This document shows positions 23,129-55,451 of a stretch of 64,000 bases of DNA, piece by piece. The first letter of the stretch is position 1; each line of letters opens with the position of its first letter. A program made the position numbers and the translations under genes. The notes beneath the pieces were generated by a model that worked only from the letters and a program-made list of their open reading frames with translations, had not been told where the DNA came from and ran no database searches. The stretch is from Oceanispirochaeta sp. (GTDB taxonomy: Bacteria; Spirochaetota; Spirochaetia; DSM-2461), in the NCBI GenBank assembly GCA_963663385.2, contig CAXXXD010000003.1, positions 704,001-768,000 on the forward strand, written 5' to 3'.

Positions 23129-23519
23129 ATTTATAAATCCTTTTGCCGGCAAATGCCCTGCGGGCCCGGGCTCTTTCGGGCTGCGGCTGCCGCCTTCGGT
23201 ATTTGCCTGGGCAAATACAGGCTATGCCTCCCTGTCGATCCCTATTTGGGGTGGTTATTATAATCAGAAATGAGTTTTGTGTTGTCTGATTTTGCTGTGT
23301 TGATTATGTAACGTTTTATTTTGTAAGAAGTTATGGGCGGTGCTAACTAAAGTTAGTTGTGTATTTTCTTTTAAAAAATGACTTTTTACTGTAAAATGAA
23401 TCGATTTTGTACTTTTTGCAGGAGTGATTCTGTGTTTGGGTGTTTATTTATTGGTTATGTGGATATTATTGCAGGGTATTTGCGGATAATGTGGAATACC
23501 TTGTTCAAGAGATAATAAG

Positions 23520-23912
23520 TTACATCGACACATTTTGTACTTCTGGTTCTTTCATAACTGCCAGACGATTTTATAGTTTTTAGGCATATGATCCGAGTTG
23601 ATTGATGCTCTCACTACACTGATTATCAATCTTTGACGCCGGTTGCGGCTGGCAGTAGTAGAAATGAGGGCATTCGCCTTCACCTACGATAGCTTTTATA
23701 TTATTGCCTGATATGGCATCGGTGATTTTCAAAATGATGCTGACGTAACATTAAAATGATCCTGTCGTCGCTATAGATCACGATTCTTGCAAGGTAAGTC
23801 CTTTAATGAGAAATTGTTCTTTTCAAAAATATAATGACTGTTTAAAATAAAGATGCAAGAATAGCGCCTATACCTGTCCTTCGGCCAGGCCGCTCCGCAG
23901 GATATTTTGGTG
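23520..23912 (+). repeat. ORF-less cassette, copy 1 (diverged)
   Basis: Starts GTTACAT (23519), R'' ACGTAAC 23743-23749; body homologous to copies 2-4. Confidence 0.85.
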
Positions 23913-23918
23913 TTATAT
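23743..23918 (+). other. attC site, long family (176 bp)
   Basis: ACGTAAC-attaa-AATGATCCTGTCG ... CGCAGGATATT-ttggt-GTTATAT; extra G and T on the L'' arm. Confidence 0.9.
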
Positions 23919-24305
23919 CGAACACATTTTGTACTTCTGGTTCTTTCATAATTGCCAGATGATTTAGTAGGTTTTAGGGTTTTGATACGGGTTGATTGAT
24001 GCTCACACTACACTGATTATCAATCTTTGACGCCGGTTGCGGCTGGCAGAAGTGAAAATAAGGGAATTCGCCTTCACCTACGTTTATTAAGATATTCTTG
24101 CCTGATATGGCATCGGTGATTTACAAAATGCTGTAGACATAACAAGAAAATGATACTGTCGTCGCTACAGATCACATTTCTTGCAGAGATACAGAATGCT
24201 GATAAATAGTTCTTTCTTAAAAACAAATTACTGTTTAAAATAAGTCTGCAAGAAAAGCGCCTGTACCTGTCCTTCGGCCAGGCCGCTCCGCAGCATATTT
24301 TGGCG
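23913..24305 (+). repeat. ORF-less cassette, copy 2
   Basis: Tandem 393-bp repeat of copy 1; near-identical to copies 3 and 4. Confidence 0.9.
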
Positions 24306-24311
24306 TTATAT
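24137..24311 (+). other. attC site, long family (175 bp)
   Basis: ACATAAC-aagaa-AATGATAC ... GCATATT-ttggc-GTTATAT. Confidence 0.9.
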
Positions 24312-24347
24312 TGACAAAATATCAGTCAATAGAGAATGGAGGAAAAA

Positions 24348-25013
24348 ATGAAAAGAAAAATGGTAGAGTTATTGTTACTAGTGCTGGCAATTTCAGCTTT
24401 TGCAGAAAATTACCCTGGTACATCAATTGATTTAGATAACATAAAAGCTAATAATTCTAGGGATATAGTGGCAATCTTAAACGGAAATATTTTCTATGTT
24501 TTTTATAATGATCTAAAGACATATGAAACTGAATTACAGCAAAAGAATTTTTTAGAAACAGATGAGGCTCAAGTTTATCAAGAGAAAATTGAGGAATTAA
24601 AAAATATTATTCAAACTCAGGGAATTACAACTGTTTATGAGCAAAGGAAAGCACAATTTTCCGATTATGATATTGAGAATAGAGGTTTTTGGGTTACAAT
24701 CGGAGACTCATATAATGATGGAGATAATATTTCACTAAATAATTTCCTATGTGATAAAGTAGAAATTTATACAAAAAAAAGTGCTATAACTTATTATATG
24801 CTTTTTATCCCTGTCCCCGAAGATGTTGCAGGCAAGATTGAGCATAATAATAATATTATCTTAAAACAAGAAATGAAAATATCCGATATTGGAATATTCA
24901 CCGTTGTTGCAAATGGTTGGAAATTTACTGACCCCCTTCCTATTGCTGAGACATTAAAGTTTATAATTTATGATAAAGCTACAAATGAAGTAATAACTGA
25001 AGTTCAATACTAA
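24348..25013 (+). CDS. Cassette hypothetical exported protein
   Basis: GGAGG RBS before ATG 24348; signal peptide ending SAFA; no recognisable family. Confidence 0.7.
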   Translation: MKRKMVELLLLVLAISAFAENYPGTSIDLDNIKANNSRDIVAILNGNIFYVFYNDLKTYETELQQKNFLETDEAQVYQEKIEELKNIIQTQGITTVYEQRKAQFSDYDIENRGFWVTIGDSYNDGDNISLNNFLCDKVEIYTKKSAITYYMLFIPVPEDVAGKIEHNNNIILKQEMKISDIGIFTVVANGWKFTDPLPIAETLKFIIYDKATNEVITEVQY

Positions 25014-25027
25014 ATTAGGACATTTGT

Positions 25028-25555
25028 ATGAAGGATAATTCGTTAGAACCAAAGAAGATTGATAGTGTTGAGAAGTTGAAAAAAATAGATCTCGCGATTT
25101 GGGCCAAATCAAAGGGTTTTGACCCAATCGTTGCACATCCGAATGGTATTGGAAATGATTATAAATACCAATACCGATTGATGTTATTTTATAAATACTA
25201 TTTATCTGGTAAGAATCAAATTTCAATTGAGAATGCTAGATCATTTGTAAAATATCTTGATGAAAATTCATATTCTGGCCGATTTATTGAGTATTTTATT
25301 CGAGAATATCGAAGAATATTAGATGACTTGATAGAAGAGATTACTGGAATTGGAAGATACTGGACAGGAACCTTTATCAGAATAAGTGAAACAGCGAGTG
25401 CCGAGGAAATTTTAATTCAGCAGTGTCAGATTCTTAGAAATGAATTATTCGATAAAGATTGTTTTAGATATCTCAATGATGATAACTATTTTAAATTTAT
25501 AGAAGAAAGAGAAATGCTTTATCAGAAAGAAGAGTTTTGGGAAAAAGAAGCTTGA
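25028..25555 (+). CDS. Cassette hypothetical protein
   Basis: 175-aa ORF, AGGA RBS, operonic with neighbours. Confidence 0.65.
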   Translation: MKDNSLEPKKIDSVEKLKKIDLAIWAKSKGFDPIVAHPNGIGNDYKYQYRLMLFYKYYLSGKNQISIENARSFVKYLDENSYSGRFIEYFIREYRRILDDLIEEITGIGRYWTGTFIRISETASAEEILIQQCQILRNELFDKDCFRYLNDDNYFKFIEEREMLYQKEEFWEKEA

Positions 25556-25580
25556 CTATTTAAATATGAAGGAATAGAAG

Positions 25581-26573
25581 ATGGAGAATGAAAATCTTGC
25601 ATTATTCAAATATTGTCCGGAATCTAATATAAAGTATATTTTCAAGGATAAAACATTAAGATTTACACAACCATCACAATTGAACGATCCTTTAGAATTA
25701 CGTCCGTTACTCGAATTTGATAAAGCCTGTAAGAATAATTCTTATGAAATTAACGGAATTAAAATGCCATCTATGAATAAATGGTACCAGTTAATTTTAG
25801 TTGAACAAGTTGTAAATAGGTATGGGATTTTATCACTTACAAGTAATTGTAAATCGATCAATATGTGGAATTATTATGCAAATGGACATAAAGGATTCAT
25901 AATAAAATTTAAGAATGATTTTCACATGAATAATTTCATAAGATCGGAAAGAGAAGAGTTCAAGTTAAAAAAAGTTGACTATGTTTCTAAATATACATTA
26001 GATATAGGGAAAATTAGTAATAATGCTGGTTACTTCACAGAAAATGATTATATCGATGACGCTGTATTCAAAAAAATAGAAATTTGGTCTTACGAATGTG
26101 AATATCGTCTAATAAAACCATTAACTGATTTTCCGAATTATCAGGAACCTGAAAACCTTGATTTTAATGATTCAAATATATATTCATGTGAACTGGATTT
26201 CAAAATTATTGATTCTATTATTTTTGGTTCTTTAATGAGCAAAGAGGATAAACAAAAAATATATAATGAAATAAAAAATTATGACATATCAATTTTTCAG
26301 GCATTATTGATCAAAGGAAGAATATCAAATGATGCTGTCGGTTTATCACCAATTGAGATTGTGAAAATCACTGATTTTGACAATATTAAAAACTATCAGC
26401 CAAAAAATTTTGTATTTGATGATTTTCCTTTTGATGAAAAAGTTATTAAAATTGATACAATTGATAAATTACCATATTACAATGAAACATATAAACAGCA
26501 AATTGAACAATTATTTAATGCAAAGCAAAGGCAATATAACAAAGAAATGGAGCAGTCAAATCCTTTGTCATGA
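25581..26573 (+). CDS. DUF2971-like protein
   Basis: LFKY, QLNDPLE, SLT...MWNYYANGHKGF, K..WSYECEYR; stop codon lies inside attC. Confidence 0.8.
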   Translation: MENENLALFKYCPESNIKYIFKDKTLRFTQPSQLNDPLELRPLLEFDKACKNNSYEINGIKMPSMNKWYQLILVEQVVNRYGILSLTSNCKSINMWNYYANGHKGFIIKFKNDFHMNNFIRSEREEFKLKKVDYVSKYTLDIGKISNNAGYFTENDYIDDAVFKKIEIWSYECEYRLIKPLTDFPNYQEPENLDFNDSNIYSCELDFKIIDSIIFGSLMSKEDKQKIYNEIKNYDISIFQALLIKGRISNDAVGLSPIEIVKITDFDNIKNYQPKNFVFDDFPFDEKVIKIDTIDKLPYYNETYKQQIEQLFNAKQRQYNKEMEQSNPLS

Positions 26574-26640
26574 TTAATGCTTACGCAAGAATACATGCCA
26601 ACCCTTCGGGACGGCTTTGCAGCTCATTTCGGCGTTATAT
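26534..26640 (+). other. attC site (107 bp)
   Basis: ATATAAC-aaaga-AATGGAGC ... GCTCATT-tcggc-GTTATAT; CAATATAAC complements cassette start GTTATATTG (24305). Confidence 0.9.
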
Positions 26641-26864
26641 CGAACACATTTTGTACTTCTGGTTCTTTCATAATTGCCTGATGATTTAGTAGGTTTTAGG
26701 GTTTTGATACGGGTTGATTGATGCTCACACTACACTGATTATCAATCTTTGACGCCGGTTGCGGCTGGCAGAAGTGGAAATAAGGGCATTCGCCTTCACC
26801 TACGTTTATTAAGATATTCTTGCCTGATATGGCATCGGTGATTTACAAAATGCTGTAGACATAA

Positions 26865-28853
26865 ATCGGGTAGCCAGAGGCTTTTGACCTCCAGCCCCCA
26901 CACCACCCTGCAAGCGGGTCCGCACAGGGCGGTTCACTCCATGGAGCAAACGAAACTATAATTTGATCATGTGTAGCCCTGGATTTTACACCAGAGGGCC
27001 TTAATATTGATCAATCCTTGCTCTTCCAACCATTTATTGGACATAGCGGCATTGGTTGCATAGCCTTTTGACAGATGCCAGTAGGACTTACTACTTGCTC
27101 CTGTCATAATGGCAAAATCTTTCGGAATACCCAGCTCCATCAGTTTCCTGACTTTTGTTCTGGGGTAACGCCACTGTTTCCAGTAGCACATACGGATTCT
27201 TCTTCTCAGCCATTCATCAATTGATTGTAGAGGTCTGTAATATTGGGAAATACCATAATAGTTCATCCACCCCCGGATATACTCGTTAAGTTTCCGGAAT
27301 CGATATTCCATTGATACCCCCCAAGACCGTCTTGTCAAATGCTTTAACTGATATTGAAACTCCCGAAAGGATGATTCAGTCCATCGGATTTTCTTACCCT
27401 TGAAAGTGAATCCCAGAAAACTGCATTCGGAGATTTTACACACCTTGCTTTTCTTCTGGTTTACAACCAATTTTAACCTGCGACTGAGATAATCACTTAT
27501 TTCAGTCAATATAGCTTTTCCATCACACAGGCGTTTTGATACAATTAATGCATCATCTGCGTAACGTGCAAAGCACAGGTTTCTCCGTTCCAACTCCTTA
27601 TCGAAATTATCAAGAAGGATATTGGAAAGTAGAGGCGACAATGGCCCTCCTTGAGGAGTCCCGATTTCAGTAGGGATTTTAATCCCATCCTTGTCCATAA
27701 TACCGGCTCTCAGGTAGCGGCCAATCAATTTCAGGACTGATTTGTCCCGGACTTTCTTAGCCACACAATGCATCAGAATATCGTGATTTACCGTATCAAA
27801 GAACTTTTCCAAGTCCAGATCAACTGCATACTTGTATCCCGATTTAACATAGGTATTTACCTGTCGTACTGCTCCGTGAGCCGATCTTCCCGGCCTGAAT
27901 CCAAAACTGCTTTCCGAAAAATCCGAATCGAATAGAGGATTCAAAACCTGTGAAATAGCCTGTTGGATAACCCTGTCTAAAATAGTGGGAATACCCAGCA
28001 TTCGCATACCTCCGGATCTCTTGGGGATTTCCACCCTGAGCACCGGAGAGGGTACATAGTACCCCAAAAGCAAAGCTTGCTTGATTTTACTCCATCTTCT
28101 GCGTAGATATTCCGGAAATTTCTCAATAGTCATGCCATTGACTCCCGGACTGCCGCCATTGCGTTTGACCTGTTTCCAGGCCTTACGCATGTTTTCAGAT
28201 GATAAAATCAAATCCATCATAGAATCGTTCAAGGCTGGTTTCTCCATAATTCGCCAAAAGTTATTTCGGCCAGTGCTAAAATTGTTCCTTTGAGAACCAT
28301 AAGGCTCCTCCTTGTGAAATGTTCAGGCCTTCACCGTGAACCGGACATTACTCCGGGCGTTGGTTACTATGCCTTCTGCTGACTTCTGCCTGCTAATCAA
28401 CGAGATTGCTCCCGTTGATGCTATACCGTGCTTTTAAACCTGTGACGACTTATTTGTACTCAAGATAATCTTGCTCATTTCCAGAGTGTCACCCTCTGAA
28501 AAGCCGGGGATTGGTTTTCCGGTTCCCTACCGGATTCTCAGTTTAAAAGAACACATTACCGCCCCGCAGACAGATCTCCCCGAATAAGACTGTACACTGT
28601 CCCCGGACAACCCTGTGATTTACCCTATTCCATACCCACGGGGCATCGTCATCATTGGCTGACTCGCCTCTGGAACTGAGCCTTCTATCACATTCTTGTA
28701 CATGGGCTCCCGGTTTTGCATTCCGGCTTCCTCCAGACATTCCCTCGCGGAAATGCCCTTGCCTTCAGCTAACAGTTGGTATAGCATGTTCACTATACGT
28801 GGGCACCTGTAGAGGACTTTTACCTCATTAGCGTACAGCCATGTCGGGCGTAC
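26865..28853 (-). mobile_element. Group IIC-attC intron, full length (1989 nt)
   Basis: 5' end GTACGCCCGACATGG, 3' end CTACCCGAT, short domain V GAACCGCCCTGTGCGGACCCGCTTGCAGGGTGGTGTG with CGC triad; inserted antisense in attC R''; removal restores ACATAACAAG. Confidence 0.93.
26967..28247 (-). CDS. ltrA: Group II intron reverse transcriptase/maturase, no endonuclease domain
   Basis: RMLGIPT, SFGFRPGRS, DLEKFFD, GTPQGGPLSP, RYADD, X domain; 426 aa. Confidence 0.95.
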   Translation of the reverse strand: MEKPALNDSMMDLILSSENMRKAWKQVKRNGGSPGVNGMTIEKFPEYLRRRWSKIKQALLLGYYVPSPVLRVEIPKRSGGMRMLGIPTILDRVIQQAISQVLNPLFDSDFSESSFGFRPGRSAHGAVRQVNTYVKSGYKYAVDLDLEKFFDTVNHDILMHCVAKKVRDKSVLKLIGRYLRAGIMDKDGIKIPTEIGTPQGGPLSPLLSNILLDNFDKELERRNLCFARYADDALIVSKRLCDGKAILTEISDYLSRRLKLVVNQKKSKVCKISECSFLGFTFKGKKIRWTESSFREFQYQLKHLTRRSWGVSMEYRFRKLNEYIRGWMNYYGISQYYRPLQSIDEWLRRRIRMCYWKQWRYPRTKVRKLMELGIPKDFAIMTGASSKSYWHLSKGYATNAAMSNKWLEEQGLINIKALWCKIQGYT

Positions 28854-29047
28854 CAAGAAAATGATACTGTCGTCGCTACAGATCACATTTCTTGCAGAGA
28901 TGCAGAATGCTGATAAATAGTTCTTTCTTAAAAACAAATTACTGTTTAAAATAAGTCTGCAAGAAAAGTGCCTGTACCTGTCCTTCGGCCAGGCCGCTCC
29001 GCAGTATATTTTGGCGTTATGTAGAACTAAGGTGTTAAAAGGTAAAT

Positions 29048-29653
29048 ATGAAAAAAGTAACGATTATAATAATTATATTGATAACACAAAGCATCTTTTC
29101 ACAATCTCAAATCAGTAGCATACGAGAATATTTAAAAGCAAATAGTTATATGCCTATTATTGAAGTACCTTTAGAATCAACAAAACTATATATATACGCT
29201 AAAGAGTCTCAGAAAAGCCAGATAAATAGTGATTATTTCTTAAACGGTGATGTATACCTTGTCAATATTGATAATGATGAAAGAATTAGATCTCATGTCA
29301 TATGCGAACTTGCTAGTAGTGCTGTTGAAGTATTCACCAATAATAAGGAATTCATAATAAATCCACGTAGTAGAAGCGAGATACGAGGATCAAGAGAAAT
29401 AATATATTATGATGAAAGATTCAATAAATTTACAATTTTCATTTCAGAATGGATGTTTCTAAGTGGCTTTAAAATTATTGATGAGTATATTGTCTGTAGC
29501 CTAGGAAACCATCCAAAATATAAGTATTTAGTGATAAATAAATATACTGGAGAAGAAATACCTGTAGATCAATTAAGCACAACCTTAAGAAGTAGTTATT
29601 CACTAGCAATACGTAATGGAAATAATTGGAATTTATATGATTACCATAAATAG
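29048..29653 (+). CDS. Cassette hypothetical exported protein
   Basis: AAGG RBS; signal peptide MKKVTIIIIILITQSIFS. Confidence 0.7.
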   Translation: MKKVTIIIIILITQSIFSQSQISSIREYLKANSYMPIIEVPLESTKLYIYAKESQKSQINSDYFLNGDVYLVNIDNDERIRSHVICELASSAVEVFTNNKEFIINPRSRSEIRGSREIIYYDERFNKFTIFISEWMFLSGFKIIDEYIVCSLGNHPKYKYLVINKYTGEEIPVDQLSTTLRSSYSLAIRNGNNWNLYDYHK

Positions 29654-29676
29654 TAAAAATCTTTATCAAATGATAA

Positions 29677-30366
29677 GTGGGTAATATGAATATTGAAAAG
29701 AAGAGAATAATTTATTGTATAATTCTATTATTTATAAACTTTGTAAATATTTATTCTGAAAATATAAAAGGACTAAATATTGAGATTTTTGAATTATTAA
29801 ACGGTGTATGGGATACAAATAACTCGAAACCTAGATCTGTAGATGAAACATATAGTTGGGGAAAAGATAATTCATATAGAGATGGCATTATAATTGATTT
29901 CGGATATGCAAGAATTGAGTTCAATGGTTTAAGTTATGGCTATACAATTGAGGACGTAAATCAACTGAATGATAATATCATCGAATTTTCAGGTTATTTC
30001 ACTGTATATGATGCAAGAATTGAAAAAATTGTTAATTCGCCTGCAACAATACATATAAAGACTAATTCACTAAGTGAAATGGAATTCATTGAAGCTGAAG
30101 CTGGCGAGTATAATTTTCAGTTAAGATTCGGAGATGCGCCAAATATCAGAATCCATGAAATTGAATTCGTGGACAAAGAAATCATTATTTCTGAAGAAAC
30201 AATATTAATGACACTGAAAAGGGATGAGTATATATACTCTGCTTCAATTGAAAATACTGTAAAAGCACATGTTATAAAAAGTTATGATTCAAAATTTTTT
30301 GTGTTAACAGAAAATGGCGATATTGGATGGATAAATCAGGATAATGTACATTTCTCTAACGAATAG
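29677..30366 (+). CDS. Cassette hypothetical exported protein (possible C-terminal SH3-like segment)
   Basis: Signal-like N-terminus; C-terminal VLTENGDIGWI. Confidence 0.6.
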   Translation: MGNMNIEKKRIIYCIILLFINFVNIYSENIKGLNIEIFELLNGVWDTNNSKPRSVDETYSWGKDNSYRDGIIIDFGYARIEFNGLSYGYTIEDVNQLNDNIIEFSGYFTVYDARIEKIVNSPATIHIKTNSLSEMEFIEAEAGEYNFQLRFGDAPNIRIHEIEFVDKEIIISEETILMTLKRDEYIYSASIENTVKAHVIKSYDSKFFVLTENGDIGWINQDNVHFSNE

Positions 30367-30377
30367 AGAATAGTACT

Positions 30378-30550
30378 ACATAACAATAAAATGATGCAGT
30401 CGAAGCTATAGATCACATTTCTTGCTGATATTGCTTCAATCAAGAATTATTGCTTCTCAAAAAGAGAATAGCTGTTTAGAATGAATGCAAGAAAAGCGCC
30501 TATACCTGTCCTTCGGCCAGGCCGCTTCGCAGCATATTTTGGCGTTGAGA
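30378..30550 (+). other. attC site, long family (173 bp), followed by IS1182 at GTT
   Basis: ACATAAC-aataa-AATGATGC ... GCATATT-ttggc-GTT; CTACATAAC complements cassette start GTTATGTAG. Confidence 0.9.
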
Positions 30551-30624
30551 CTGTAGAAAAAGGTAAGCGGTAATTCTCTCCATCTTGCGTGATTTCGAAA
30601 TGATTATATACTCCATGAAAAATC

Positions 30625-30921
30625 ATGGAGGAACCTAATATGACCAACTGGAATTGGCCTGAATTAATCGAAGAACAAAAACAGAGCGGGAAAACAATTT
30701 CTGAGTTCTGCGCAGATAAAGGAGTTCACTATACATCTTTCTACAAGAATCGAAAAAAATTAAAGAAAAGCAGTTTTATTGAAATCAAACAGAAAGCCCC
30801 GGTATTACAGCCACAAAACCCCACAATGATACTCAGATACAAGGATTTCTCATTGGATCTGGCATCAGGTTATAACAGGCAATCCCTGATAGATCTTCTG
30901 AAGATTCTGAGAGAGTTGTAA
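30625..30921 (+). CDS. tnpA: IS66 TnpA accessory protein
   Basis: HTH QSGKTISEFC; first ORF of IS66. Confidence 0.85.
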   Translation: MEEPNMTNWNWPELIEEQKQSGKTISEFCADKGVHYTSFYKNRKKLKKSSFIEIKQKAPVLQPQNPTMILRYKDFSLDLASGYNRQSLIDLLKILREL

Positions 30922-31265
30922 TGTTTGTTGACCTGAACGAATACCGGATCTTTCTGAGACCCGGCACGACAGACTTAAGAAAAGCGATCAACGGATTATC
31001 TCTGTTTATCCAGAATGAAATGAATCATGATTTATTCGCCAAATCGCTATTCCTCTTTTGTAACCGGCAGAGAAAACTTCTGAAAATTGTCTACTGGGAT
31101 AATACCGGTTTTTGTCTCTGGCAGAAGAGACTGGAAGAGAACAGATATCCCTGGCCGGAAACAGATGAAGATGCTAAAGAGATCAGCATGGATGAATTGA
31201 AAATGCTCCTGACGGGAATAGACTTTTTCAAAGCGCATAAAAAATTATCATATTCCCGTATTTAG
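30921..31265 (+). CDS. tnpB: IS66 TnpB accessory protein
   Basis: TDLRKAINGL, LFLFCNR, KIVYWD.TGFCLWQKRLE. Confidence 0.92.
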   Translation: MFVDLNEYRIFLRPGTTDLRKAINGLSLFIQNEMNHDLFAKSLFLFCNRQRKLLKIVYWDNTGFCLWQKRLEENRYPWPETDEDAKEISMDELKMLLTGIDFFKAHKKLSYSRI

Positions 31266-31304
31266 AGATTTTATAATTATAGAAACTTTGATAGAATTCC
31301 CCGT

Positions 31305-32867
31305 ATGGAGAATGAAGAACAGCATTTAAGAGAACAACTTGATGCACAAAAAATAGAAATTGCTGAACTGAAAAGACTTAATGCCATTCTCCAGGAGCAA
31401 GTAGCAAAACTGAACCTCCTGCACTTTGGAACAAAATCAGAGAAGATAACTGCCGAAGATAAGAAACAAGCTTCTCTCTTCAATGAAGCGGAAGATAGTG
31501 CTTTTGCTCAGAATGATGAAGAGCAGGAGAAAAATGTTATTGAAACGGTTGAGGTCGGTTCCTACAAGAAAAATATTAAAAAATCCGGCCGGAAACCTCT
31601 GCCGGCAGATCTGCCGAGAGAGATCGTGGAATATGATATTCCGGATAAAGATAAGATCTGTGCCTGCGGAACAGAAAAGACCTGTATCGGTGAAGATGTT
31701 TCCGAGAGAGCAAAAATTATTCCGTCAAAAGTCGTTGTTATTCAGGAACGTAGAAAAAAGTACTCCTGCAAGAATTGTGAAGGGACGACTCTTGATGAAG
31801 CTGCTGTACAGACCGCAGAAGGAGCAAAGCATCTGGTCGCGGGCAGTATTGCCGATGAAAGCCTGCTCGCTTGGAGTATAAGCGAAAAGTTTGAGTTCGC
31901 TCTTCCTTTCTACAGGCAATCAAAACGGTTAAACCAGATAGGCATACCGATCCCCCGGGCGACATTGAGCAATCTTACGATAAAATCGGCAACGGCATGT
32001 AAGCCTCTATATGATTTGCTGAAAGAAAACATTAAATCCGGTTCCATTATTAATGCCGATGAGACGAGAGTTCAGGTTCTAAAGGAACCGAAACGAAAAG
32101 CTTCAGATAAATCATGGATGTGGGTCTTTCTCAGAGGAGATCCCGATAAAAAATGTGTCATATTTCAGTATGAGCAAGGCCGATCCCATGCAATTCCGTT
32201 GGATTTCTTGGAAAATTACTCTGGCTGGGTTCAAACTGATGATTTTGAGGCCTACCATACTGCCCGAAAAAAAGTTGATGGAGATATAAAGCATGTCTTA
32301 TGCTGGGCCCATGCCAGAAGAAAGTTCTTCCAATATTGGGAATCAACCAAGAAAAAAGATGCAGAAGCAAAGCAAATTCTCGACCTGATAAAGGATCTGT
32401 TTGAACTGGAATCATTACGGGATAATTATTCGCTAAAAGGGTTTCATAAACAGCGACAAAATAGAGCAGAACCGATACTAGATAAGTTACAGAAAAAACT
32501 GACGAAGCTTTATCCTCAAGTACCTCCTTCTTTAGAGTTCGGTAAGGCGATGAAGTATACATTGAGCAACTGGGAGCAGTTGGTTCTATATCTGAAAAAT
32601 CCTGTTTTGACTCCTTCGAACAATAGCGCTGAAAATGCAATCAGACCCTTCGTAATCGGGAGAAAAAACTGGCTTTTTGCCGGAAGCCCGAAAGGTGCTG
32701 AATCATCGGCAATTCTGTACAGTCTCGTTGAATCTGCGAAGATGAACAATCTTCCAGTTTATGCTTACTTGTACTTTATCTTCCGGGAATTGCCCTGCTG
32801 TGAAAAACAGAGTGATTATGAAAAATTACTTCCCTATAATTTAACTGCTGAAGATATTGCAATCTGA
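31305..32867 (+). CDS. tnpC: IS66 TnpC DDE transposase
   Basis: FGTKSEK, ADET, CWAHARRKF, NNSAENAIR, GRKNWLF. Confidence 0.95.
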   Translation: MENEEQHLREQLDAQKIEIAELKRLNAILQEQVAKLNLLHFGTKSEKITAEDKKQASLFNEAEDSAFAQNDEEQEKNVIETVEVGSYKKNIKKSGRKPLPADLPREIVEYDIPDKDKICACGTEKTCIGEDVSERAKIIPSKVVVIQERRKKYSCKNCEGTTLDEAAVQTAEGAKHLVAGSIADESLLAWSISEKFEFALPFYRQSKRLNQIGIPIPRATLSNLTIKSATACKPLYDLLKENIKSGSIINADETRVQVLKEPKRKASDKSWMWVFLRGDPDKKCVIFQYEQGRSHAIPLDFLENYSGWVQTDDFEAYHTARKKVDGDIKHVLCWAHARRKFFQYWESTKKKDAEAKQILDLIKDLFELESLRDNYSLKGFHKQRQNRAEPILDKLQKKLTKLYPQVPPSLEFGKAMKYTLSNWEQLVLYLKNPVLTPSNNSAENAIRPFVIGRKNWLFAGSPKGAESSAILYSLVESAKMNNLPVYAYLYFIFRELPCCEKQSDYEKLLPYNLTAEDIAI

Positions 32868-32985
32868 TCCATCAGTCCTAAAATGCTGTCAATGTGGGAA
32901 GAATTACCGCTTACAGAAAAAGTCACCTTTTCTACAGCTCTCAGCCAAAACATGGTAAAATTCTATAAAAGGGAGGTTTTCAATA

Positions 32986-34530
32986 ATGGCCAGATATAAA
33001 GAGTATTCTTATGCCCAAACAATGATGATCCCCGTAAGCTTTGAAAAACAGATTTTACCAGGAACATTCGAATATACATTATGCCATCTGATAGACAATC
33101 AAATTGACATTGATATGTCAGTTTTTGAAAACCACTACGAAAATGATGAAACCGGAGCTCCCGCCTACGACCCTGCCATCCTCTTAAAAATAGTCCTTTA
33201 CGCCTATTCAAAAGGAATAAACAGCAGCAGAAAAATTGAACAATTATGTCGGGAAAACATAGTCTGTATGGCACTGGCCGCCGATTCCAGACCCCACTTT
33301 ACAACAATCGCCGACTTTATCTCTTCTCGTCACAAAGAGTGCCAATCCCTCTTTACCATGATACTCTCTGTTTGTTACTCCCAGGGACTCATTGGAAAAA
33401 ACATGTTTGCCATAGACGGCTGTAAAATCTCCTCCAACTGCTCTAAGGAATGGAGCGGAACCAAAGCTGAACTATTTGCCAAAACAAAAAAAATAGAGAA
33501 ATCCGTAAACTACCTGATTGAGAAACACAAAAGCACGGATATTAAATGGGATGATAAGAATCAGCGGAAAAAAGAAAAGCAGGCCATCAAAAAGCTAAAG
33601 ACTAAAACAGATAAAATCTACAAATGGCTTGATACCCATTATGACCGTTTCGGGAGTCAGGATCAGCCCATTAAAAGCAATATAGTTGATAACGAAAGCG
33701 CTAAAATGTCCACCGGACATGGCGTTATACAGGGATATAATGGCATTGCTGCAGTAGACGACAAGCATCAATTAATTATATTTGCCGATACATACGGTGA
33801 TGTAAACGAATCAGGACACCTAACAGAGATACTTGAGGGGATTGATAAGAGCTGCAAAGAATCTCACATAGATGACCACATCTATAATAATGTCACCATA
33901 ACTGCTGATACAGGCTTTCATAATAAAAAGAACATGCAGATGATCTGCGAGAAGAAGATAGATGCCTATATCCCGGACAATCAGTTCAGAAAAAGGCACG
34001 TAGCCTTTCAGGATGCCGGCAGATACAAAAAGAAAGTCGCCAACTGGAAACCGGAAAAAGGAAAACACTATTTTAGTCCGGAAGACTTTTATATGGATAC
34101 GGCAACCAACCAGCTTATCTGCCCTGCCGGTCATGCCATGTGGCTGAAATCCCCCAACTTCAGAAGCAATGACGGTCGGTATACCGGAAAGTCCTATCAA
34201 GGGCATATACGCAATTGTCGTGACTGTAAACTTCGTTCAAAATGTATAAGAAAGGAAACGACAAAGGCCCGTCAGGTTGCCATACTGAAGGAAGTGCCGG
34301 ATGGAAAAGGGAGCAATCCCATGGCCGGTATGAAGGAGAAAATTGATACGCCCTATGGACGATCAGTTTATGCAAAACGGATGAGTACGGTAGAACCTGT
34401 ATTCGGACATATTGCCGGAATGAAAAAGCTGAATCGCTTTACTTTACGGGGTACGGAAAAGGTCCGGACACAGTGGTTGTTGTACTGTATGGTGCATAAT
34501 ATCGGGAAAATCCAGCAGTATAGTGCGTAG
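32986..34530 (+). CDS. IS1182-family transposase
   Basis: GAPAYDP, SSRKIE, PHFTTIADF, AIDG, QGYN, ADTGF, VEPVFGHI. Confidence 0.92.
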   Translation: MARYKEYSYAQTMMIPVSFEKQILPGTFEYTLCHLIDNQIDIDMSVFENHYENDETGAPAYDPAILLKIVLYAYSKGINSSRKIEQLCRENIVCMALAADSRPHFTTIADFISSRHKECQSLFTMILSVCYSQGLIGKNMFAIDGCKISSNCSKEWSGTKAELFAKTKKIEKSVNYLIEKHKSTDIKWDDKNQRKKEKQAIKKLKTKTDKIYKWLDTHYDRFGSQDQPIKSNIVDNESAKMSTGHGVIQGYNGIAAVDDKHQLIIFADTYGDVNESGHLTEILEGIDKSCKESHIDDHIYNNVTITADTGFHNKKNMQMICEKKIDAYIPDNQFRKRHVAFQDAGRYKKKVANWKPEKGKHYFSPEDFYMDTATNQLICPAGHAMWLKSPNFRSNDGRYTGKSYQGHIRNCRDCKLRSKCIRKETTKARQVAILKEVPDGKGSNPMAGMKEKIDTPYGRSVYAKRMSTVEPVFGHIAGMKKLNRFTLRGTEKVRTQWLLYCMVHNIGKIQQYSA

Positions 34531-34731
34531 GAATACGGAAAAGTGCTAAAGAATGGGTATAGCGTTGGATAAAACCAATTGTAGTTGAATATAGCCGGTT
34601 TTAATCGGATTTAATATTGAAATCAAAGAGATGAATGATTTTTCCAAATGAGTGCTTTCAGGGGAGCCTTGAAAATACCCAGTTTGAGTTTTTCTACAGT
34701 CTCGTTATACAACAAGAATCAAGGATCACAT

Positions 34732-36057
34732 ATGATATCTTCGGAATTCAAGAATAATTTTCTCAAAAGGATTACTAGAATTGATTCAATAAATGTTACA
34801 GCTACACAATGTATTGAAAAAGATCCTAATACGATAAATGGAACAGCAACTATCTTTTTTGAGAATGAAATTTTAAAAATAGTTTTTTATCCAACAAATG
34901 ATGAATTAGATTTTTTCTACCCTCCATATGAAATTGGAGCAATAATAAAAAAAGAATATTATTATAAAATTACTTTCAGCGACAAAAATGGAAAATTATG
35001 GGAAACAGATCGATTTCTGCCAAAAAGAACAATTTCTTTACCAAAAAATGAAGTTATTTGGAATTGTTCTATTAGATCGATAAAAACAATATTCTCAATG
35101 CAGGATGTGGGTGCTGCAAAAAAGTTAAATTATTTGACTATATCAGTTAAAAATAATTTAGAAATTCCAATTAATGACTACTATTGTCAAAAATGTTTAA
35201 CCGATAATTTTACATTTACAGATAATAATGTTGGAATTTGGCATATAAGGGAAGAAAATGAAAATTTCAAAATAATGAATTTAAATGGAAGCACAATAAT
35301 TAAGTTCGAAACAAATGATTTATTTCCTCAAAAGACAATAGCATCTTTACTTGGTACTATATCCTTTATGTGGGGAGAAAAAATTGAATATGAATATATT
35401 GAATATCTATATGATGATAAAAAAAGTATAGAATTATTTAATTCTCCAAATGCTGATAATAATAAGCTCAATACACCACTTGTAATGAAAACTCATGAGC
35501 ATAAAGATAATTATGACAAACTTTTTTATAAGTATTTCAAATTTATTGATAATGAAGCGAATAAGTTGATATATATACAAAATCAAATTATTGCTTCTAA
35601 TAAAACAATATTGGAAGTTTATTCATTAGTACTTTCAACTTGTATCGAAAATTTGATTAAAAATCGGTTTGATATGAAAGATAAAAAGACTATCACTGAA
35701 GTTGATTCAATAATAACATTAGTCAGAAAAAAGAATATTGAGGAAAAAATAAAAAATAGAATTTTAGGATCTTTAAATTCAATACGTAAATCACCCAAAA
35801 GAGCAAAAGACATTCTAAATGAATTATTGAACAACGGAGTCATTACAAAAGAGCAAAAAAAATCATGGGACAAACTTAGAAACTCTACAGCACATGGTTC
35901 ATATGATTTTGAGGTTTCAGATCTCTTAAAATTAACCAATGATGTATTAACACTTTATTATTTGATAATCTTTGAAATTATTGGATATAAGGGAGAATAT
36001 GTAAATTACTCAAAAAAGAATTTCCCTGTAGAATTAAATTATGCAAATGATGAATAA
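34732..36057 (+). CDS. ApeA-like HEPN domain protein (putative anti-phage RNase)
   Basis: C-terminal WDKLRNSTAHG (Rx4H); AAGGA RBS before ATG 34732 (the track start 34648 lies inside IS1182). Confidence 0.7.
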   Translation: MISSEFKNNFLKRITRIDSINVTATQCIEKDPNTINGTATIFFENEILKIVFYPTNDELDFFYPPYEIGAIIKKEYYYKITFSDKNGKLWETDRFLPKRTISLPKNEVIWNCSIRSIKTIFSMQDVGAAKKLNYLTISVKNNLEIPINDYYCQKCLTDNFTFTDNNVGIWHIREENENFKIMNLNGSTIIKFETNDLFPQKTIASLLGTISFMWGEKIEYEYIEYLYDDKKSIELFNSPNADNNKLNTPLVMKTHEHKDNYDKLFYKYFKFIDNEANKLIYIQNQIIASNKTILEVYSLVLSTCIENLIKNRFDMKDKKTITEVDSIITLVRKKNIEEKIKNRILGSLNSIRKSPKRAKDILNELLNNGVITKEQKKSWDKLRNSTAHGSYDFEVSDLLKLTNDVLTLYYLIIFEIIGYKGEYVNYSKKNFPVELNYANDE

Positions 36058-36063
36058 ATTGTT

Positions 36064-36160
36064 GTATAACAAAGCCTTGCAACTGTCATGGCAAACTGTC
36101 ACAGAAAATGCGTGGCATTTTCTGCGCCAATTCACCATGCAGCTGAAGGCGACGTTATAT
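36064..36160 (+). other. attC site (97 bp)
   Basis: GTATAAC-aaagc-CTTGCAAC ... GCTGAAG-gcgac-GTTATAT; GTTGTATAAC complements cassette start GTTATACAAC. Confidence 0.9.
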
Positions 36161-36396
36161 CGAACACATTTTGTACTTCTGGTTCTTTCATAATTGCCAG
36201 ATGATTTAGTAGGTTTTAGGGTTTTGATACGGGTTGATTGATGCTCACACTACACTGATTATCAATCTTTGATGTGAGCAACGGTGCTAGAGTTCCTACA
36301 TTCAGCGGCGAAAAAGTTCCGCTTTTACTGACATAAAAAGGGGCAAATATCCTAAAGTAGAGATTACCACACCTACTACAAAAGGAACCTGCCCCT

Positions 36397-37680
36397 ATGT
36401 GTCAAAAGGAAGATCGCATGCATGTAGCACGCATCATGGCCAACGAAGGCCATACTCAAAAGTATATCGCTGAGTATCTTGGTGTCAGCGACCGGATGGT
36501 AAGGAAATACCTGAATCCGGACTTCAGAACCCGTCCCAGGAAATCCCGGGAAAGCATCCTTAAACCATTCTACCCCATAATAGAAGATACCTTGGAAAAT
36601 GATCCATACTTCAACCTCGTTTATCTTCATGAGAGACTACAAAACTCCGGTTATTCTGGAAAAATGACAATCCTACGTGACTATGCCCGGAAGTACAGGA
36701 AGAAACTGATTGAGAAAGCAGTAATCCGCTTTGAAACAGAGCCGGGAAGACAGGCCCAAGTTGACTGGAAAGAATGCGGAAAAATGGAGATTGATGGCAA
36801 ACTTCAGAAAGTATATGCATTTGTCATGCTGCTGGGATATAGTAGGATCCCGTTTGTCCTTTTCTCCTTGGATATGACCTCGCCGACATTGCTCCAAGCC
36901 CATCTGATGGCATTCCGGTTCTTCGGTGCTGTTCCGAAGGAAATTCTTTACGACAACATGAGAACAGCCTGGTACAACAACGGCGGTGTCTGGCACGTGA
37001 ACTCAAAGCTCCTGGCCTTTGCTTCAGCCTGTGGTTTCACTCCTCTTCGCTGCCAAGTTCGTAGACCGCAAACTAAGGGAAAGGTAGAGCGTTTTATCGG
37101 TTACCTGGGCCACAACTTCTTGATCCGTGAAGAAGCAATGAAGAGCCGCTCAATAAACGATTTAAACCTGACTGTCTCCAAATGGATCAAAACAGTAGTG
37201 GAACAGCAGATGAGCCAATTTAAACAGACTCGAAAAGAGAGATTTGAGTACGAAAGGCAGTTTATGAACCCTTGGAACCCTGAGGCAGCTCCAGATGTAA
37301 GGCTGGTTAAAGAACTGCTTGTCTCCAGAGAAGGGTTTATTCGTTTTGAATCAAACAAGTACAGCATTCCCGCGGACTTCATAGGACAAGTTGCGACACT
37401 GAAAGTAGATACGCTGGCAAGAACTGCCGCTATCTTCATTGATGGGGCCCCTGTTAGAACCTTCAAGCTTCTGACAAAAGGTGCGAAATTAGAATCTATC
37501 CGAAAGATTGATACCGACTCACTGGTTAAACGCTGGAAGAAAGAGAATCGCATGACAAAAAGGAATGTCGTTGCCAGTGTCCCGGAAATAAAGAATACTC
37601 CCAGGTCATCATTGATGCATACAGAGGTTGATACACGCCATCCTGAAAGCTACGACAAGCTTATGGGGGTAACAGCATGA
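36397..37680 (+). CDS. istA: IS21 transposase IstA
   Basis: RFETEPGRQAQVDW, ILYDNM, PQTKGKVER. Confidence 0.95.
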   Translation: MCQKEDRMHVARIMANEGHTQKYIAEYLGVSDRMVRKYLNPDFRTRPRKSRESILKPFYPIIEDTLENDPYFNLVYLHERLQNSGYSGKMTILRDYARKYRKKLIEKAVIRFETEPGRQAQVDWKECGKMEIDGKLQKVYAFVMLLGYSRIPFVLFSLDMTSPTLLQAHLMAFRFFGAVPKEILYDNMRTAWYNNGGVWHVNSKLLAFASACGFTPLRCQVRRPQTKGKVERFIGYLGHNFLIREEAMKSRSINDLNLTVSKWIKTVVEQQMSQFKQTRKERFEYERQFMNPWNPEAAPDVRLVKELLVSREGFIRFESNKYSIPADFIGQVATLKVDTLARTAAIFIDGAPVRTFKLLTKGAKLESIRKIDTDSLVKRWKKENRMTKRNVVASVPEIKNTPRSSLMHTEVDTRHPESYDKLMGVTA

Positions 37681-38441
37681 ATGTACTGCAGGAGACCATA
37701 GAGATCAGGATGAACGACTTAGGGCTGGAGTTTATGGCGGCGGGGTTGGAGAGCTTCCTTGAAGCTCAATCTCACACAGAAAACACTCTCTCTCAGTCAA
37801 TTGCAGACCTATTGGAACTGGAGTACGTTCCCCGTAAGGAGAGAGCTGCAAAAAGCCGTCTGAAGCTCTCTGGAATGCCATCGATCAAGCTATTAGAGGA
37901 CTTCGACCTATCCTGGTTGAAGGGAGGATTGACCGCTGCTCAACTGGCAGAGTTTTCTAGTCTGGCTTTCATTGAAAGAAAGGAAAATCTAGTACTGATG
38001 GGGCCAAGTGGATTGGGTAAAACCCATTTGATGCTAGCTCTGGCTCATAAAGCCTGTCAGAATGGTTATACTGTATGGTATACAAGCTGCATCGATCTGA
38101 TGGAGAATCTGACCCATGCCCGGGAGCAGGGGCGGTTGAAGCGACGGCTTACCTGGCTTAGAAAGCCTCATCTCATCCTTATCGATGAAGTTGGCTACGA
38201 GAACCTGACGAAAGAACAGGCCAACTTGTTTTTTCAGATTGTAAACACCCGCTATGAACAAGGCAGTATGATCATCACCACAAACAAGTCTTTCGGTCGT
38301 TGGGCTGAGATTCTGGATGATGAAGCCATTGCGACAGCGACTATAGACAGGCTCCTTCACCATGCACATGTCCTGAGTCTTAAAGGGGATTCATACCGGA
38401 TGAAAGACCGGTTGAAAATAGGGATCGTTGATCCTGTTTAA
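37677..38441 (+). CDS. istB: IS21 helper ATPase IstB
   Basis: GPSGLGKT, LIDEVGY, ITTN, IDRLLHH, GDSYR. Confidence 0.95.
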   Translation: MNVLQETIEIRMNDLGLEFMAAGLESFLEAQSHTENTLSQSIADLLELEYVPRKERAAKSRLKLSGMPSIKLLEDFDLSWLKGGLTAAQLAEFSSLAFIERKENLVLMGPSGLGKTHLMLALAHKACQNGYTVWYTSCIDLMENLTHAREQGRLKRRLTWLRKPHLILIDEVGYENLTKEQANLFFQIVNTRYEQGSMIITTNKSFGRWAEILDDEAIATATIDRLLHHAHVLSLKGDSYRMKDRLKIGIVDPV

Positions 38442-38617
38442 TTTTACCCAGAAGCGGAACTTTTAAACCGTTGAAATGAGGAACTTTTTCACCGCTGTTG
38501 ACAATCTTTGACGCCGGTTGCGGCTGGCAGAAGTGGAAATAAGGGCATTCGCCTTCACCTACGTTTATTAAGATATTCTTGCCTGATATGGCATCGGTGA
38601 TTTACAAAATGCTGTAG

Positions 38618-38792
38618 ACATAACAAGAAAATGATACTGTCGTCGCTACAGATCACATTTCTTGCAGAGATACAGTATGCTGATAAATAGTTCTTTCTTA
38701 AAAACAAATTACTGTTTAAAATAAGTCTGCAAGAAAAGCGCCTGTACCTGTCCTTCGGCCAGGCCGCTCCGCAGCATATTTTGGCGTTATAC
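38618..38792 (+). other. attC site, long family (175 bp)
   Basis: Near-identical to 24137-24311; ends GTTATAC. Confidence 0.9.
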
Positions 38793-40320: not shown

Positions 40321-40693
40321 ACCAAAGTATGTTGATAAAATATTCAAAGGTGAGAAAACATTTGAATATAGAAAAAGTATATTTAAAAGAAATGACATAG
40401 AGAAAGTCATAATATATTCTTCATCTCCAGTAATGAAAGTTGTAGGTGAATTCAAGATTAAAGATATTTATTGTGCCAATCCTGATGAGATATGGGAGAA
40501 TACAAAATTAGAATCTGGAATTGATGAAACTTTCTTTAGGAAATATTTTGACGGGAAGGATAAAGCATTTGCAATAAAAATAAACAACCTAAAACAATAT
40601 AAAGATGAATATGATTTATTTAAAAGCTTTGGAATAAAACCACCTCAATCATTTGCATATGTAGACAACGGTATAACAAAGCTATGCAACTGA
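40298..40693 (+). CDS. ASCH domain protein
   Basis: ILSIKPKYVDKIFKGEKTFEYRK, IYSSSP, PPQSF; AAGGAG RBS before ATG 40298; stop inside attC. Confidence 0.85.
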   Translation: MNVILSIKPKYVDKIFKGEKTFEYRKSIFKRNDIEKVIIYSSSPVMKVVGEFKIKDIYCANPDEIWENTKLESGIDETFFRKYFDGKDKAFAIKINNLKQYKDEYDLFKSFGIKPPQSFAYVDNGITKLCN

Positions 40694-40805
40694 CCCAATT
40701 TTTGTCACGATTTTTGCCTTCGGCCGTTACGGAACTAATCGTTCCTACACTCAAAAATCACGCCAACCCTTCGGGACAATTGGGCAGCTGATAGCGATGT
40801 TATAC
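40671..40805 (+). other. attC site (135 bp)
   Basis: GTATAAC-aaagc-TATGCAAC ... GCTGATA-gcgat-GTTATAC; CGGTATAAC complements cassette start GTTATACCG. Confidence 0.88.
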
Positions 40806-43699: not shown

Positions 43700-43711
43700 A
43701 AATCCGTATAA

Positions 43712-51209: not shown

Positions 51210-51306
51210 TAGTATCAAAGCCTTGCAACTGTCATGGCAAACTGTCACAGAAAATGCTTGGCATTTTCTGCGCCAATTCACCATGCAGCTGAAGGCGATG
51301 TTGAGA
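51210..51306 (+). other. attC site (97-bp family) with R'' AAC mutated to ATC
   Basis: Near-identical to 36064-36160 but begins TAGTATC. Confidence 0.85.
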
Positions 51307-55417: not shown

Positions 55418-55451
55418 TGAAAATACCCAGTTTGAGTTTTTCTACAGTCTC
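55418..55451 (+). mobile_element. Orphan IS1182 right end
   Basis: TGAAAATACCCAGTTTGAGTTTTTCTACAGTCTC identical to 34670-34703, again followed by GTT. Confidence 0.9.

Follow-up and report, generated by a model that had tools for sequence, protein, structure and literature searches.

In a 64,000-nt stretch of the genome of Oceanispirochaeta sp. (contig CAXXXD010000003.1, positions 704,001 to 768,000; hereafter the window) we have found an array of integron cassettes in which five of the recombination sites (attC) are unusually long. That these five elements are genuine attC sites forming a lineage-specific long class is practically certain, and the same holds for two further points: the existence of a discrete loop module of 60–64 nt, and the amplification of a cassette devoid of genes, here called D2, that ends in one of these sites. 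As to the role of the module, the explanation that best covers the evidence as a whole is that of long-class attCs whose loop is a candidate outward promoter, a view that we hold tentatively and would rate a little short of an even chance.

Repeat finding and alignment within the window gave the limits of the five elements, of 172–176 bp each (Table 1). All of them begin with an RYYYAAC-like box and end with GTTRRRY, and in all of them TTCTTGC and GCAAGAA surround an AT-rich stretch of 61–64 nt that contains CTGTTTARAAT shortly 5' of GCAAGAA, with a pyrimidine box located 17 nt upstream of the −10-like box. In the site at 24137, for example, TTCTTGC (24178–24184) and GCAAGAA (24248–24254) enclose a 63-nt loop, i.e., the variable terminal structure (VTS), with a −35-like TTTCTT at 24213–24218 and a −10-like TAAAAT at 24236–24241; the loop of the site at 30378 reads TTCTCA-17-TAGAAT. 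Four of the five sites are preceded by the body of D2, a cassette of ca. 393 bp made up of ca. 220 bp without any open reading frame (ORF) plus the long attC. Three of these sites (24137, 28848 and 38618) are mutually 97–100% identical and the one at 23743 stands at 83%. The only long attC of the window unattached to D2, at 30378, closes a cassette (29017–30544) with ORFs at 29048–29653 and 29677–30366. A preliminary description of this DNA had proposed the five sites, the clamp formed by the two heptamers, the CTGTTTARAAT motif and the pyrimidine box, and every one of them has been located. It had also pointed to coding cassettes starting close behind the crossover, and the starts that it quoted do lie 25–42 nt after G|TT (including the one at 34732 once the inserted IS1182-like element is removed), and to restriction-modification and Fic cassettes behind shorter attCs, which we find at 40671–40805 (135 nt) and 51213–51302. 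As a whole that description is partly confirmed: its coordinates are accurate and its cases were over-counted, since four of the five long sites are copies of one empty cassette, which brings the effective n down to 2–3.

The structure of these elements was studied over a wider sample. Among 60 relatives searched at the DNA level, five of the ten congeners gave matches, and a profile search of the fetched arrays provided 36 full-length long members from six species. From these, 27 non-redundant long attCs were aligned, and a structure was proposed from the sequences and then counted over the alignment. The resulting backbone has two helices, R''/R' and L''/L' (the second with two bulges), and a three-way junction; its 3' arm forms a small GC hairpin, and there is a conserved internal loop, TCAC/GCGCC. 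The R box is paired in 87% of the cells, and the AAC/GTT triplet (column pairs 5–172, 6–171 and 7–170) forms standard pairs in 27, 24 and 25 of the 27 members, respectively. Compensatory changes affecting both sides were found in 13 of the 17 pairs of the R/L helix and in three of the five pairs of helix 30–34/126–130, from which the small GC hairpin branches off; the clamp is invariant in the alignment and therefore uninformative about pairing. Altogether, 40 of the 50 proposed pairs fall within well-paired helices, with 78.4% of the cells paired compared to 35–45% when the 3' partners are slid by 1–3 columns. The covariation score was 0.255, against 0.132 in shuffles and 0.066–0.098 with slid partners, and none of 500 shuffles reached the observed value. 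RNAalifold alone recovered the base helix and the small hairpin and nothing more. Searched at the gathering score, Rfam gave only four matches in the window, all to group II introns and none on the attCs or D2, and with E values up to 5 over positions 23250–24400 there was no match to any family, the DUF1874 motif included.

With DNA energy parameters, the bottom strand was more stable than the top one in 23 of the 27 members, as is described for attCs in general (PMC5027507). The two bulged bases lie 7 nt apart on the R''-L'' arm (24152 and 24159 in the second site of the window); the first (column 16) is G in all 27 members and the second (column 23) is T in 17 and A in 10. By eye, a like pattern is present in the short-class sites at 36064–36160 and 40671–40805. 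These letters belong to the cassette-sense strand, so that the bottom strand would present C and A/T, and the bulged bases published for attCs are G16 and T23/24 of the bottom strand (Nivina 2016; PMC5027507). Either the integrase would read different bulged bases or the choice of strand would differ in this lineage. The position of the crossover can be deduced from D2, whose copies have different upstream sites (attI, a long attC, or an attC of 107 or 97 nt), begin immediately behind the GTT of these and end at their own GGCGTT. Because the upstream partners differ and the downstream attC is constant, it follows from the junctions that the crossover would take place at R', the canonical place. 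A crossover at R'' with recombination of the top strand, which would place the loop upstream of its own gene, was considered and is ruled out by the same shared downstream attC and differing upstream sites.

The long sites are variants of a more widespread type. Censuses were based on arm profiles (hidden Markov models) plus folding and on a covariance model built from the alignment of 27; an attC finder relying on arm energy alone missed the long sites, and a second finder produced many false matches in core genes. Of 38 genomes of the order, 22 contain the shared backbone, and each of the six sampled genera is represented among them. The matches mostly measured 87–135 nt, and among the matches listed 49 had 156–180 nt, in eight genomes belonging to seven species of the genus and one species of another genus (48 further matches of the model stand outside this list). 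The long class can be described as the short-class backbone plus one discrete module of the terminal structure, a 7-bp clamp enclosing an AT-rich loop of 60–64 nt. This loop length is found in 34 of the 36 members, the other two being one mis-anchored and one without anchor. We regard the extra length as a discrete module because the 107-nt site of the window has the arms of the family with ca. 12 nt in place of clamp and loop. All long members can be aligned and share the clamp, and a single origin is likely on this comparison. The 107-nt site overlaps the final 40 nt of the ORF at 25581–26573; its 3' arm resembles the long class, including a GCAAGAA-like stretch, and it lacks the 5' clamp and the loop; it may have arisen from a long site by deletion. 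Other long-loop attCs on the same backbone were seen at L046:1-230 (minus strand), at L109:3940-4119 and in L071 (a 174-nt site on the minus strand starting at 8644). These represent two other lineages, with clamps AATGTTGC/GCAACATT and GGTTTGTGCT/AGCACAAAC and unrelated loops of 66–72 nt, indicating that long terminal loops arose or were exchanged more than once. By eye their loops have −10-like hexamers on both strands, from which we draw no inference. A metagenome scan with a pattern of the 3' arm gave zero matches.

Within the otherwise diverged loop, weighted conservation over the 27 members singles out two blocks, columns 75–82 (T.TTTCC) and 97–106 (TG.TTA.A.T), which read as TTyyCA-like and TAnAnT on the cassette-sense strand. 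The columns of these −35- and −10-like boxes (78–83 and 101–106) have an information content of 0.95 bits compared to 0.59 for the other loop columns, and among ten representatives the pairwise identity was 0.59 in the motif columns and 0.41 in the others. The spacer is 17 nt in 24 of the 27 members, and 3–6 nt separate the −10 box from the G of GCAAGAA. Twenty-three of the 27 have TAnnnT (as TAAAAT, TAGAAT, TACCAT, TACACT, TACAAT, TAGAGT, TAGGCT or TATCCT), and all five window copies have TAAAAT or TAGAAT, with the A at position 2 and the T at position 6. We applied a strict criterion for sigma-70 promoters (at least 4/6 matches per hexamer and at least 9/12 overall, A2 and T6 in the −10 box, spacer of 16–18 nt) and a relaxed one (8 of 12). 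Strict sites were found on the top strand of 13 of the 27 members versus 1.8 expected from dinucleotide shuffles; at the conserved position, 11 satisfied the strict rule and 18 the relaxed one. In the window, at least four matches to the −35 hexamer were found in two of the five copies (TTTTCA at 23820 and TTCTCA at 30454).

The obvious alternative is that the loop is a mere expansion of the terminal structure, without transcriptional role, in which an insert of ca. 70 nt in one ancestral attC spread afterwards, and the blocks reflect common ancestry, AT-richness and loose folding needs. We consider this quite possible, if somewhat improbable. That all long members are alignable and have a common clamp is what would be expected from such a history, and the loop is semi-structured: its mean pairing probability is flat at ca. 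0.5, with 0.63 for the pyrimidine block, and pairing with purine runs appears in several folds. However, the best candidate for a helix in the loop, a hairpin of the TTCTC/GAGAA type, is paired in only 47.6% of the cells, by which a conserved hairpin as a feature of the family is ruled out; structure is thus a poor explanation for the conservation of two blocks. Expansion also leaves aside that TA.A.T and TTyyCA occur on one strand at a fixed spacing. In addition, a long VTS is reported to lower recombination from double-stranded DNA (PMC5027507), so that a poorly paired one of 60 nt should be costly, yet the class numbers at least 49 sites in eight genomes. The persistence of a class bearing such a cost would suggest a compensating benefit.

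Other observations weigh against a promoter, and some of them speak directly for simple expansion. Nine of the 27 members fail both rules and lack a usable −10/−35 pair, having TTTCCG-like boxes with TACACT, AAGACT or AAGCCT. The amplified variant, which makes up three of the five window copies, has the weakest −35 (TTTCTT, two matches of six) and fails the strict criterion, and the G of the −35 TTG is found in no member. Strict sites also exceed expectation on the bottom strand (6 of 27). Among 36 placements of two hexamers 17 nt apart the motif ranks third, the two better ones lying 3–4 nt to the left within the same blocks. Promoter-like sites are frequent by chance in this AT-rich DNA and over the region as a whole hardly enriched: 82 were counted in 18 kb against 64.3 ± 8.3 after shuffling. 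The promoter-like motif noted in the preliminary description is indeed present in all five sites; it is also unspecific, TTYYYW-N17-TARAAT occurring four more times on the plus strand of the window. The member sequences are related, so that all these counts overstate their independence, and the pyrimidine block pairs with various purine runs in several of the predicted folds. Finally, for Vibrio cassettes in-silico promoter scores are reported not to have predicted the measured activity (PMC11014356). With all this weighed, a sigma-70-type outward promoter is still the likeliest single reading of the loop module, at a likelihood that we would place noticeably below even. The earlier proposal that the attC itself acts as a portable promoter is partly supported. 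In its favor is the conserved dyad on the sense strand in 27 long attCs of six species; the failing third of the members, the weak −35 of the amplified variant and the adjacency argument (see below) count against it.

If the loop is such a promoter, its layout would be an A-rich stretch followed by TTyyCA, 17 nt and TAnAnT, and transcription would begin at the purines of GCAAGAA. The transcript would open with the hairpin of the 3' arm and then enter the next cassette, so any cassette ended by a long attC would give its downstream neighbor transcription independent of the cassette promoter Pc. D2 would then be a cassette with a cargo that is essentially the candidate promoter. The more elaborate version of this mechanism, a modular attC whose terminal loop houses a portable sigma-70 promoter, with D2 reduced to that function, perhaps with a regulatory site in its boxes, and repeatedly recruited to the first position, is doubtful as a complete picture, although we regard it as possible.

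The preliminary description went further, stating that long attCs precede every promoterless coding cassette, short ones being found before cassettes with a promoter of their own. Much of this reduces to one empty cassette copied several times. Within the window the pattern of leaders does hold (25–42 nt after long attCs versus 66–77 nt after the 97-nt and 135-nt ones). The same comparison was made over the arrays of six genomes of the genus, measuring from the crossover to the first same-strand ORF of at least 60 amino acids (aa), with crude ORF calling and with insertion sequence (IS) elements and D2 retained; 21 of the 66 5'-arm matches, for which no R' partner was found, and one short site without ORF in range were set aside. 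Leaders behind the 25 long attCs had a median of 80 nt and those behind the 19 short ones a median of 78 nt, i.e., no difference (Mann–Whitney p = 0.65), and in 13 of the 36 long members no more than 45 nt separate the extracted site from the next start. A rule pairing long attCs specifically with promoterless cassettes is not supported, and the missing adjacency signal counts for simple expansion and against a promoter. The strict form of the proposal, with long attCs as a selective on-switch for an array without platform, is very improbable: the window pattern speaks for it, and against it stand the origin of four of the five cases from a single duplicated cassette, the lack of difference across the genus and, as described below, the retention of attI with a Pc-like site here and of an integrase gene in the genome.

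D2 deserves attention in its own right. BLAST searches of the whole genome (5.3 Mb in 4 contigs) found eight long attCs and seven D2 bodies. A long attC is located behind all seven bodies, so D2 accounts for seven of the eight long sites, and the copies are spread over four arrays. Six of these D2 plus attC units are 98–100% identical, and D2 occupies the place next to attI in three of the four arrays; a congener has an array in which a D2-like cassette follows the attI-like ATAATAAGTTAT. The D2 bodies of the window contain no ORF of at least 60 aa. Smaller ORFs were rejected by eye, since the frames that start from the ATG at L'' vary in length; minus-strand ORFs of 50 aa, again by eye, are sited at non-equivalent places, and on similar inspection neither a sigma-54 promoter nor a standard promoter or a coding remnant fitted the body. 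D2-like cassettes are present in three other species and in a metagenome-assembled genome (MAG) titled Spirochaeta sp. They share with D2 two boxes, CGGYTGCGGCTGGCAGAAGT and GGAATTCGCCTTCACC, separated by 8–13 variable nt, as well as a short TGGCC motif close to the attC; elsewhere the bodies have diverged. The box pairs of the window lie at 24034–24078, 23640–23684, 26756–26800 and 38515–38559. Across species the spacer between the boxes differs by lengths that are not multiples of three, indicating that the region is non-coding. For the boxes a known motif, an Rfam family or an ORF was sought and none fits, and alifold of the D2-like bodies in both orientations gave one conserved 6-bp hairpin and nothing further. 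A scan of genome contigs with the box pattern gave 21 loci; the one inspected (L046) was related, and the remaining 20, judged by titles that name unrelated taxa, were attributed to chance.

These data can be read in another way, in which the body of D2 is what matters, its boxes being a binding site for a protein or part of a small RNA, and the long attC is merely its recombination site. The retention of the boxes in three other species and one MAG while the remaining body diverged, the non-coding indels of the spacer, and the position of D2-like cassettes immediately behind attI (three arrays here, one in a congener) all fit with it. Nevertheless, neither Rfam (E up to 5) nor motif recognition gave a match, a single small hairpin is conserved, and such a role would leave the loop module unexplained on the many attCs of coding cassettes, 23 of the 36 long members having no D2 core upstream. 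We consider it rather unlikely. A selfish non-coding cassette, excised and re-inserted very efficiently by replicative resolution, is less likely still. Six nearly identical copies over four arrays, three of them in first position (the preferred insertion point), are what such an element would leave behind, and its disruption appears to be tolerated, as two copies contain the same intron and one an IS21 element; copy number would then say nothing about benefits to neighbors. On the other hand, a long VTS should make a poorer substrate, as far as the published assays go (PMC5027507), and conservation of D2-like cassettes across species would be unusual for junk. A different gene-less cassette, a 399-bp unit at 399-bp spacing with a 134-nt attC, is repeated in another genus of the family, in L104 (G013:C1:3594000-3612000) and L107, where its attC gave 11 and 4 matches, respectively; the one copy inspected has TTGCGA-18-TATAAT in the body near the 5' end. 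Amplification of gene-less cassettes is thus recurrent in the bacterial family, a fact that also fits selfish spread.

The preliminary description called this an array lacking intI. No intI adjoins it, and yet an attI-like site with a Pc-like box has been kept, and an intI gene is present on contig C2 (TIGR02249, 381 bits versus a cut-off of 265). The attI-like region of the window contains the palindrome GCTAACTAAAGTTAGT (23342–23357), a Pc-like TTTAAA-16-TAAAAT (23370–23397) and a 26-nt core, TACCTTGTTCAAGAGATAATAAGTTA (23497–23522), that ends at the G|TT crossover. The same 26 nt recur unchanged in four arrays of the genome, three of which share the palindrome and a T(A/G)TAAAAT box, in the window the TTTAAA-16-TAAAAT already mentioned. 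The ca. 200 bp between the intI of C2 and its first cassette, a D2, are 73% identical to window positions 23341–23540, and positions 23148–23195 match sequence beyond the far end of the same gene (comparison with C2:1687433-1689867). The matches on both sides of intI indicate that the window array is a paralogous platform that has lost intI, with 145 bp replacing ca. 2.2 kb. Derivation of the loop from the attI/Pc region was discarded, as only two loop variants (own1 and own2) showed similarity to the attI region of the window, and the other 16 of 18 comparisons gave none. Cassette cargo at 40882–43699, 48711–51152, 51368–52333 and 55810–56133 included a C5 DNA methylase with a neighboring ORF of 496 aa, an Eco57I/MmeI-like fused restriction-modification enzyme, a Fic-domain protein and a ParE-family toxin. 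Such defence and addiction-type cargo is often seen in chromosomal integrons.

The array has also received several mobile elements. The third D2 copy is interrupted by a group II intron, recognized on the minus strand by Rfam (RF02001, 114 bits; RF01998, 62 bits) and by the Pfam domains RVT_1 and GIIM of its ORF, the only Pfam matches there, with no endonuclease domain. As read from the junctions, it is inserted between ACATAA and the C of R'', antisense to the cassettes. With its ribozyme domains, a reverse transcriptase (RT)/maturase without endonuclease and its antisense position in an attC, the intron has the traits of the group IIC-attC subclass as named in PMC3001079, an assignment made from the sequence. 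Another copy occupies the same R'' position in a D2 attC on contig C2 (about 1685242–1687230). Since such introns are reported to carry outward promoters, it may be the intron, and not the attC loop, that drives the cassette starting at 29048. Further remains are a copy broken by two tandem IS66 elements (43913–46264 and 46413–48764; fragments 43708–43912 and 46265–46412) and a plus-strand fragment around 52411–53031. The IS1182-family element is inserted directly after the GTT of the attC at 30378 and has GTT on both sides, which suggests that it might target the R' box; the IS66-family element nested in it has an 8-bp duplication (AGAAAAAG). A lone copy of the IS1182-family right end is found at 55438–55451, followed by GTTAT, and the attCs of several relatives are followed by GTT+GAGACT or GTT+CTACAG. 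A search of public sequencing runs for positions 23300–30600 listed no RNA run; the six runs that contain the region are contig sets of unrecorded library kind from two studies. In three of them, the contigs break at repeats, and one contig spans 36273–38503 (the IS21-family element) at raised depth. One contig of run X4, from a second study, joins 30543 to the D2 start at 36154; with a short side of 30 letters, it is a borderline hint that the cassettes of that strain are arranged in another order.

Table 1. Sites, cassettes and inserted elements of the array (positions in the window).
Feature	Position	Strand	Description
attI-like platform remnant	23342–23522	+	no adjacent intI; 73% identity to the stretch beside intI on contig C2
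Long attC 1	23743–23918	+	closes D2 copy 1; −10-like box ends at 23848; loop module 23784–23861
Long attC 2	24137–24311	+	closes D2 copy 2; −10-like box ends at 24241; loop module 24178–24254
Long attC 3	28848–29022, first six bases (ACATAA) at 26859–26864	+	closes D2 copy 3; −10-like box ends at 28952; loop module 28889–28965
Long attC 4	30378–30550	+	closes a coding cassette; −10-like box ends at 30482; loop module 30419–30493
Long attC 5	38618–38792	+	closes D2 copy 4; −10-like box ends at 38722; loop module 38659–38735
D2 copy 1	23520–23912 (body 23520–23742)	+	first cassette after attI; older, ca. 83–88% identical to the others
D2 copy 2	23913–24305 (body 23913–24136)	+	393 bp; box A 24034–24049, box B 24062–24078
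D2 copy 3	26635–29016 (body 26635–26864)	+	attC split by group II intron, resumes at 28854; R' G at 29016
D2 copy 4	36155–38786 (body 36155–36272 and 38502–38617)	+	body split by IS21-family element
Short-class attC	26534–26640 (107 nt)	+	family arms, no 60-nt loop; closes three-ORF cassette 24306–26634
Short-class attC	36064–36160 (97 nt)	+	closes cassette 34704–36154 (ORF start 34732)
Short-class attC	40671–40805 (135 nt)	+	35-nt loop, GATTTTTG/CAAAAATC clamp; precedes C5-methylase cassette
Short-class attC	51213–51302	+	precedes Fic cassette
Group II intron	26865–28853 (1,989 nt)	−	in R'' box of D2 copy 3; RT/maturase ORF 26967–28247
IS1182-family element	30547–34703	+	directly after GTT of the attC at 30378, GTT on both sides
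IS66-family element	30563–32914		nested in IS1182-family element; 8-bp duplication
IS21-family element	about 36273–38501		in body of D2 copy 4; istA 36397–37680, istB 37677–38441

The closest known sites are the attCs of sedentary chromosomal integrons such as the Vibrio cholerae repeats (VCRs) (Bouvier 2009; Nivina 2016). They have the same RYYYAAC...GTTRRRY ends, two bulges on the R''-L'' arm at a distance of 7 nt, a bottom strand more stable than the top one, a variable and possibly branched terminal structure, similarity within the lineage and a position at the 3' end of co-oriented cassettes. The sites described here differ in their length (172–176 bp versus the 57–141 bp quoted in PMC5027507), in having ca. 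60 nt of largely unpaired terminal structure, in a central spacer of 3 nt per arm instead of 5–6, and in bottom-strand bulges that would be C and A/T instead of G and T. In Treponema, attCs of 63–68 bp have been described, and of 115–132 bp in two species (PMC3607928). The DUF1874 motif, with multiple stems and located in consecutive intergenic regions, has been put forward as a possible attC of unusual complexity (Weinberg et al. 2017; PMC5737381), and our attCs match neither this motif nor any other Rfam family.

There are precedents for cassettes that provide promoters. Promoter activity was measured for gene-less cassettes of Vibrionaceae, with start sites at various places and, in one cassette (F2), inside the attC (Blanco et al. 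2024; PMC11014356), and for cassettes of oral Treponema, one of which occupied the first position (Tansirichaiya et al. 2019; PMC6557892). Like the gene-less ones, D2 has no ORF, has its own attC and is found among coding cassettes and in first position. However, activity was measured in those reports and is putative for D2; there the promoters were placed at various sites of the body, and here the candidate lies in the attC, a part common to coding cassettes. Group IIC-attC introns are reported to express the following cassette from outward promoters (Pout; Leon et al. 2010; PMC3001079). Both are mobile inserts in an attC that supply the downstream cassette (here as a candidate), and such an intron is present in two D2 attCs of this genome, but Pout belongs to a 2-kb retroelement placed at R'', whereas the loop described here is a 60-nt part of the attC itself. 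In a literature search covering titles and the beginnings of abstracts, with supplements outside its reach, we came upon no report of an attC class whose terminal structure contains a conserved promoter.

The question touched by these results is how cassettes located far from Pc are expressed in large chromosomal arrays, for which the published answers are promoters scattered in some gene-less cassettes and the group IIC-attC introns. The natural series of sites on one backbone (about 97, 107, 135 and 175 nt) is well suited for the study of loop size and of the identity of the bulged bases. If true, a promoter within a class of attCs would couple the mobility of a cassette to the activation of the neighboring gene, and the picture of the array as a “silent memory” would change for this lineage. 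Together with the complementary bulged bases, it would point to a lineage of integrons with rules of its own for the recognition of sites and the expression of arrays.

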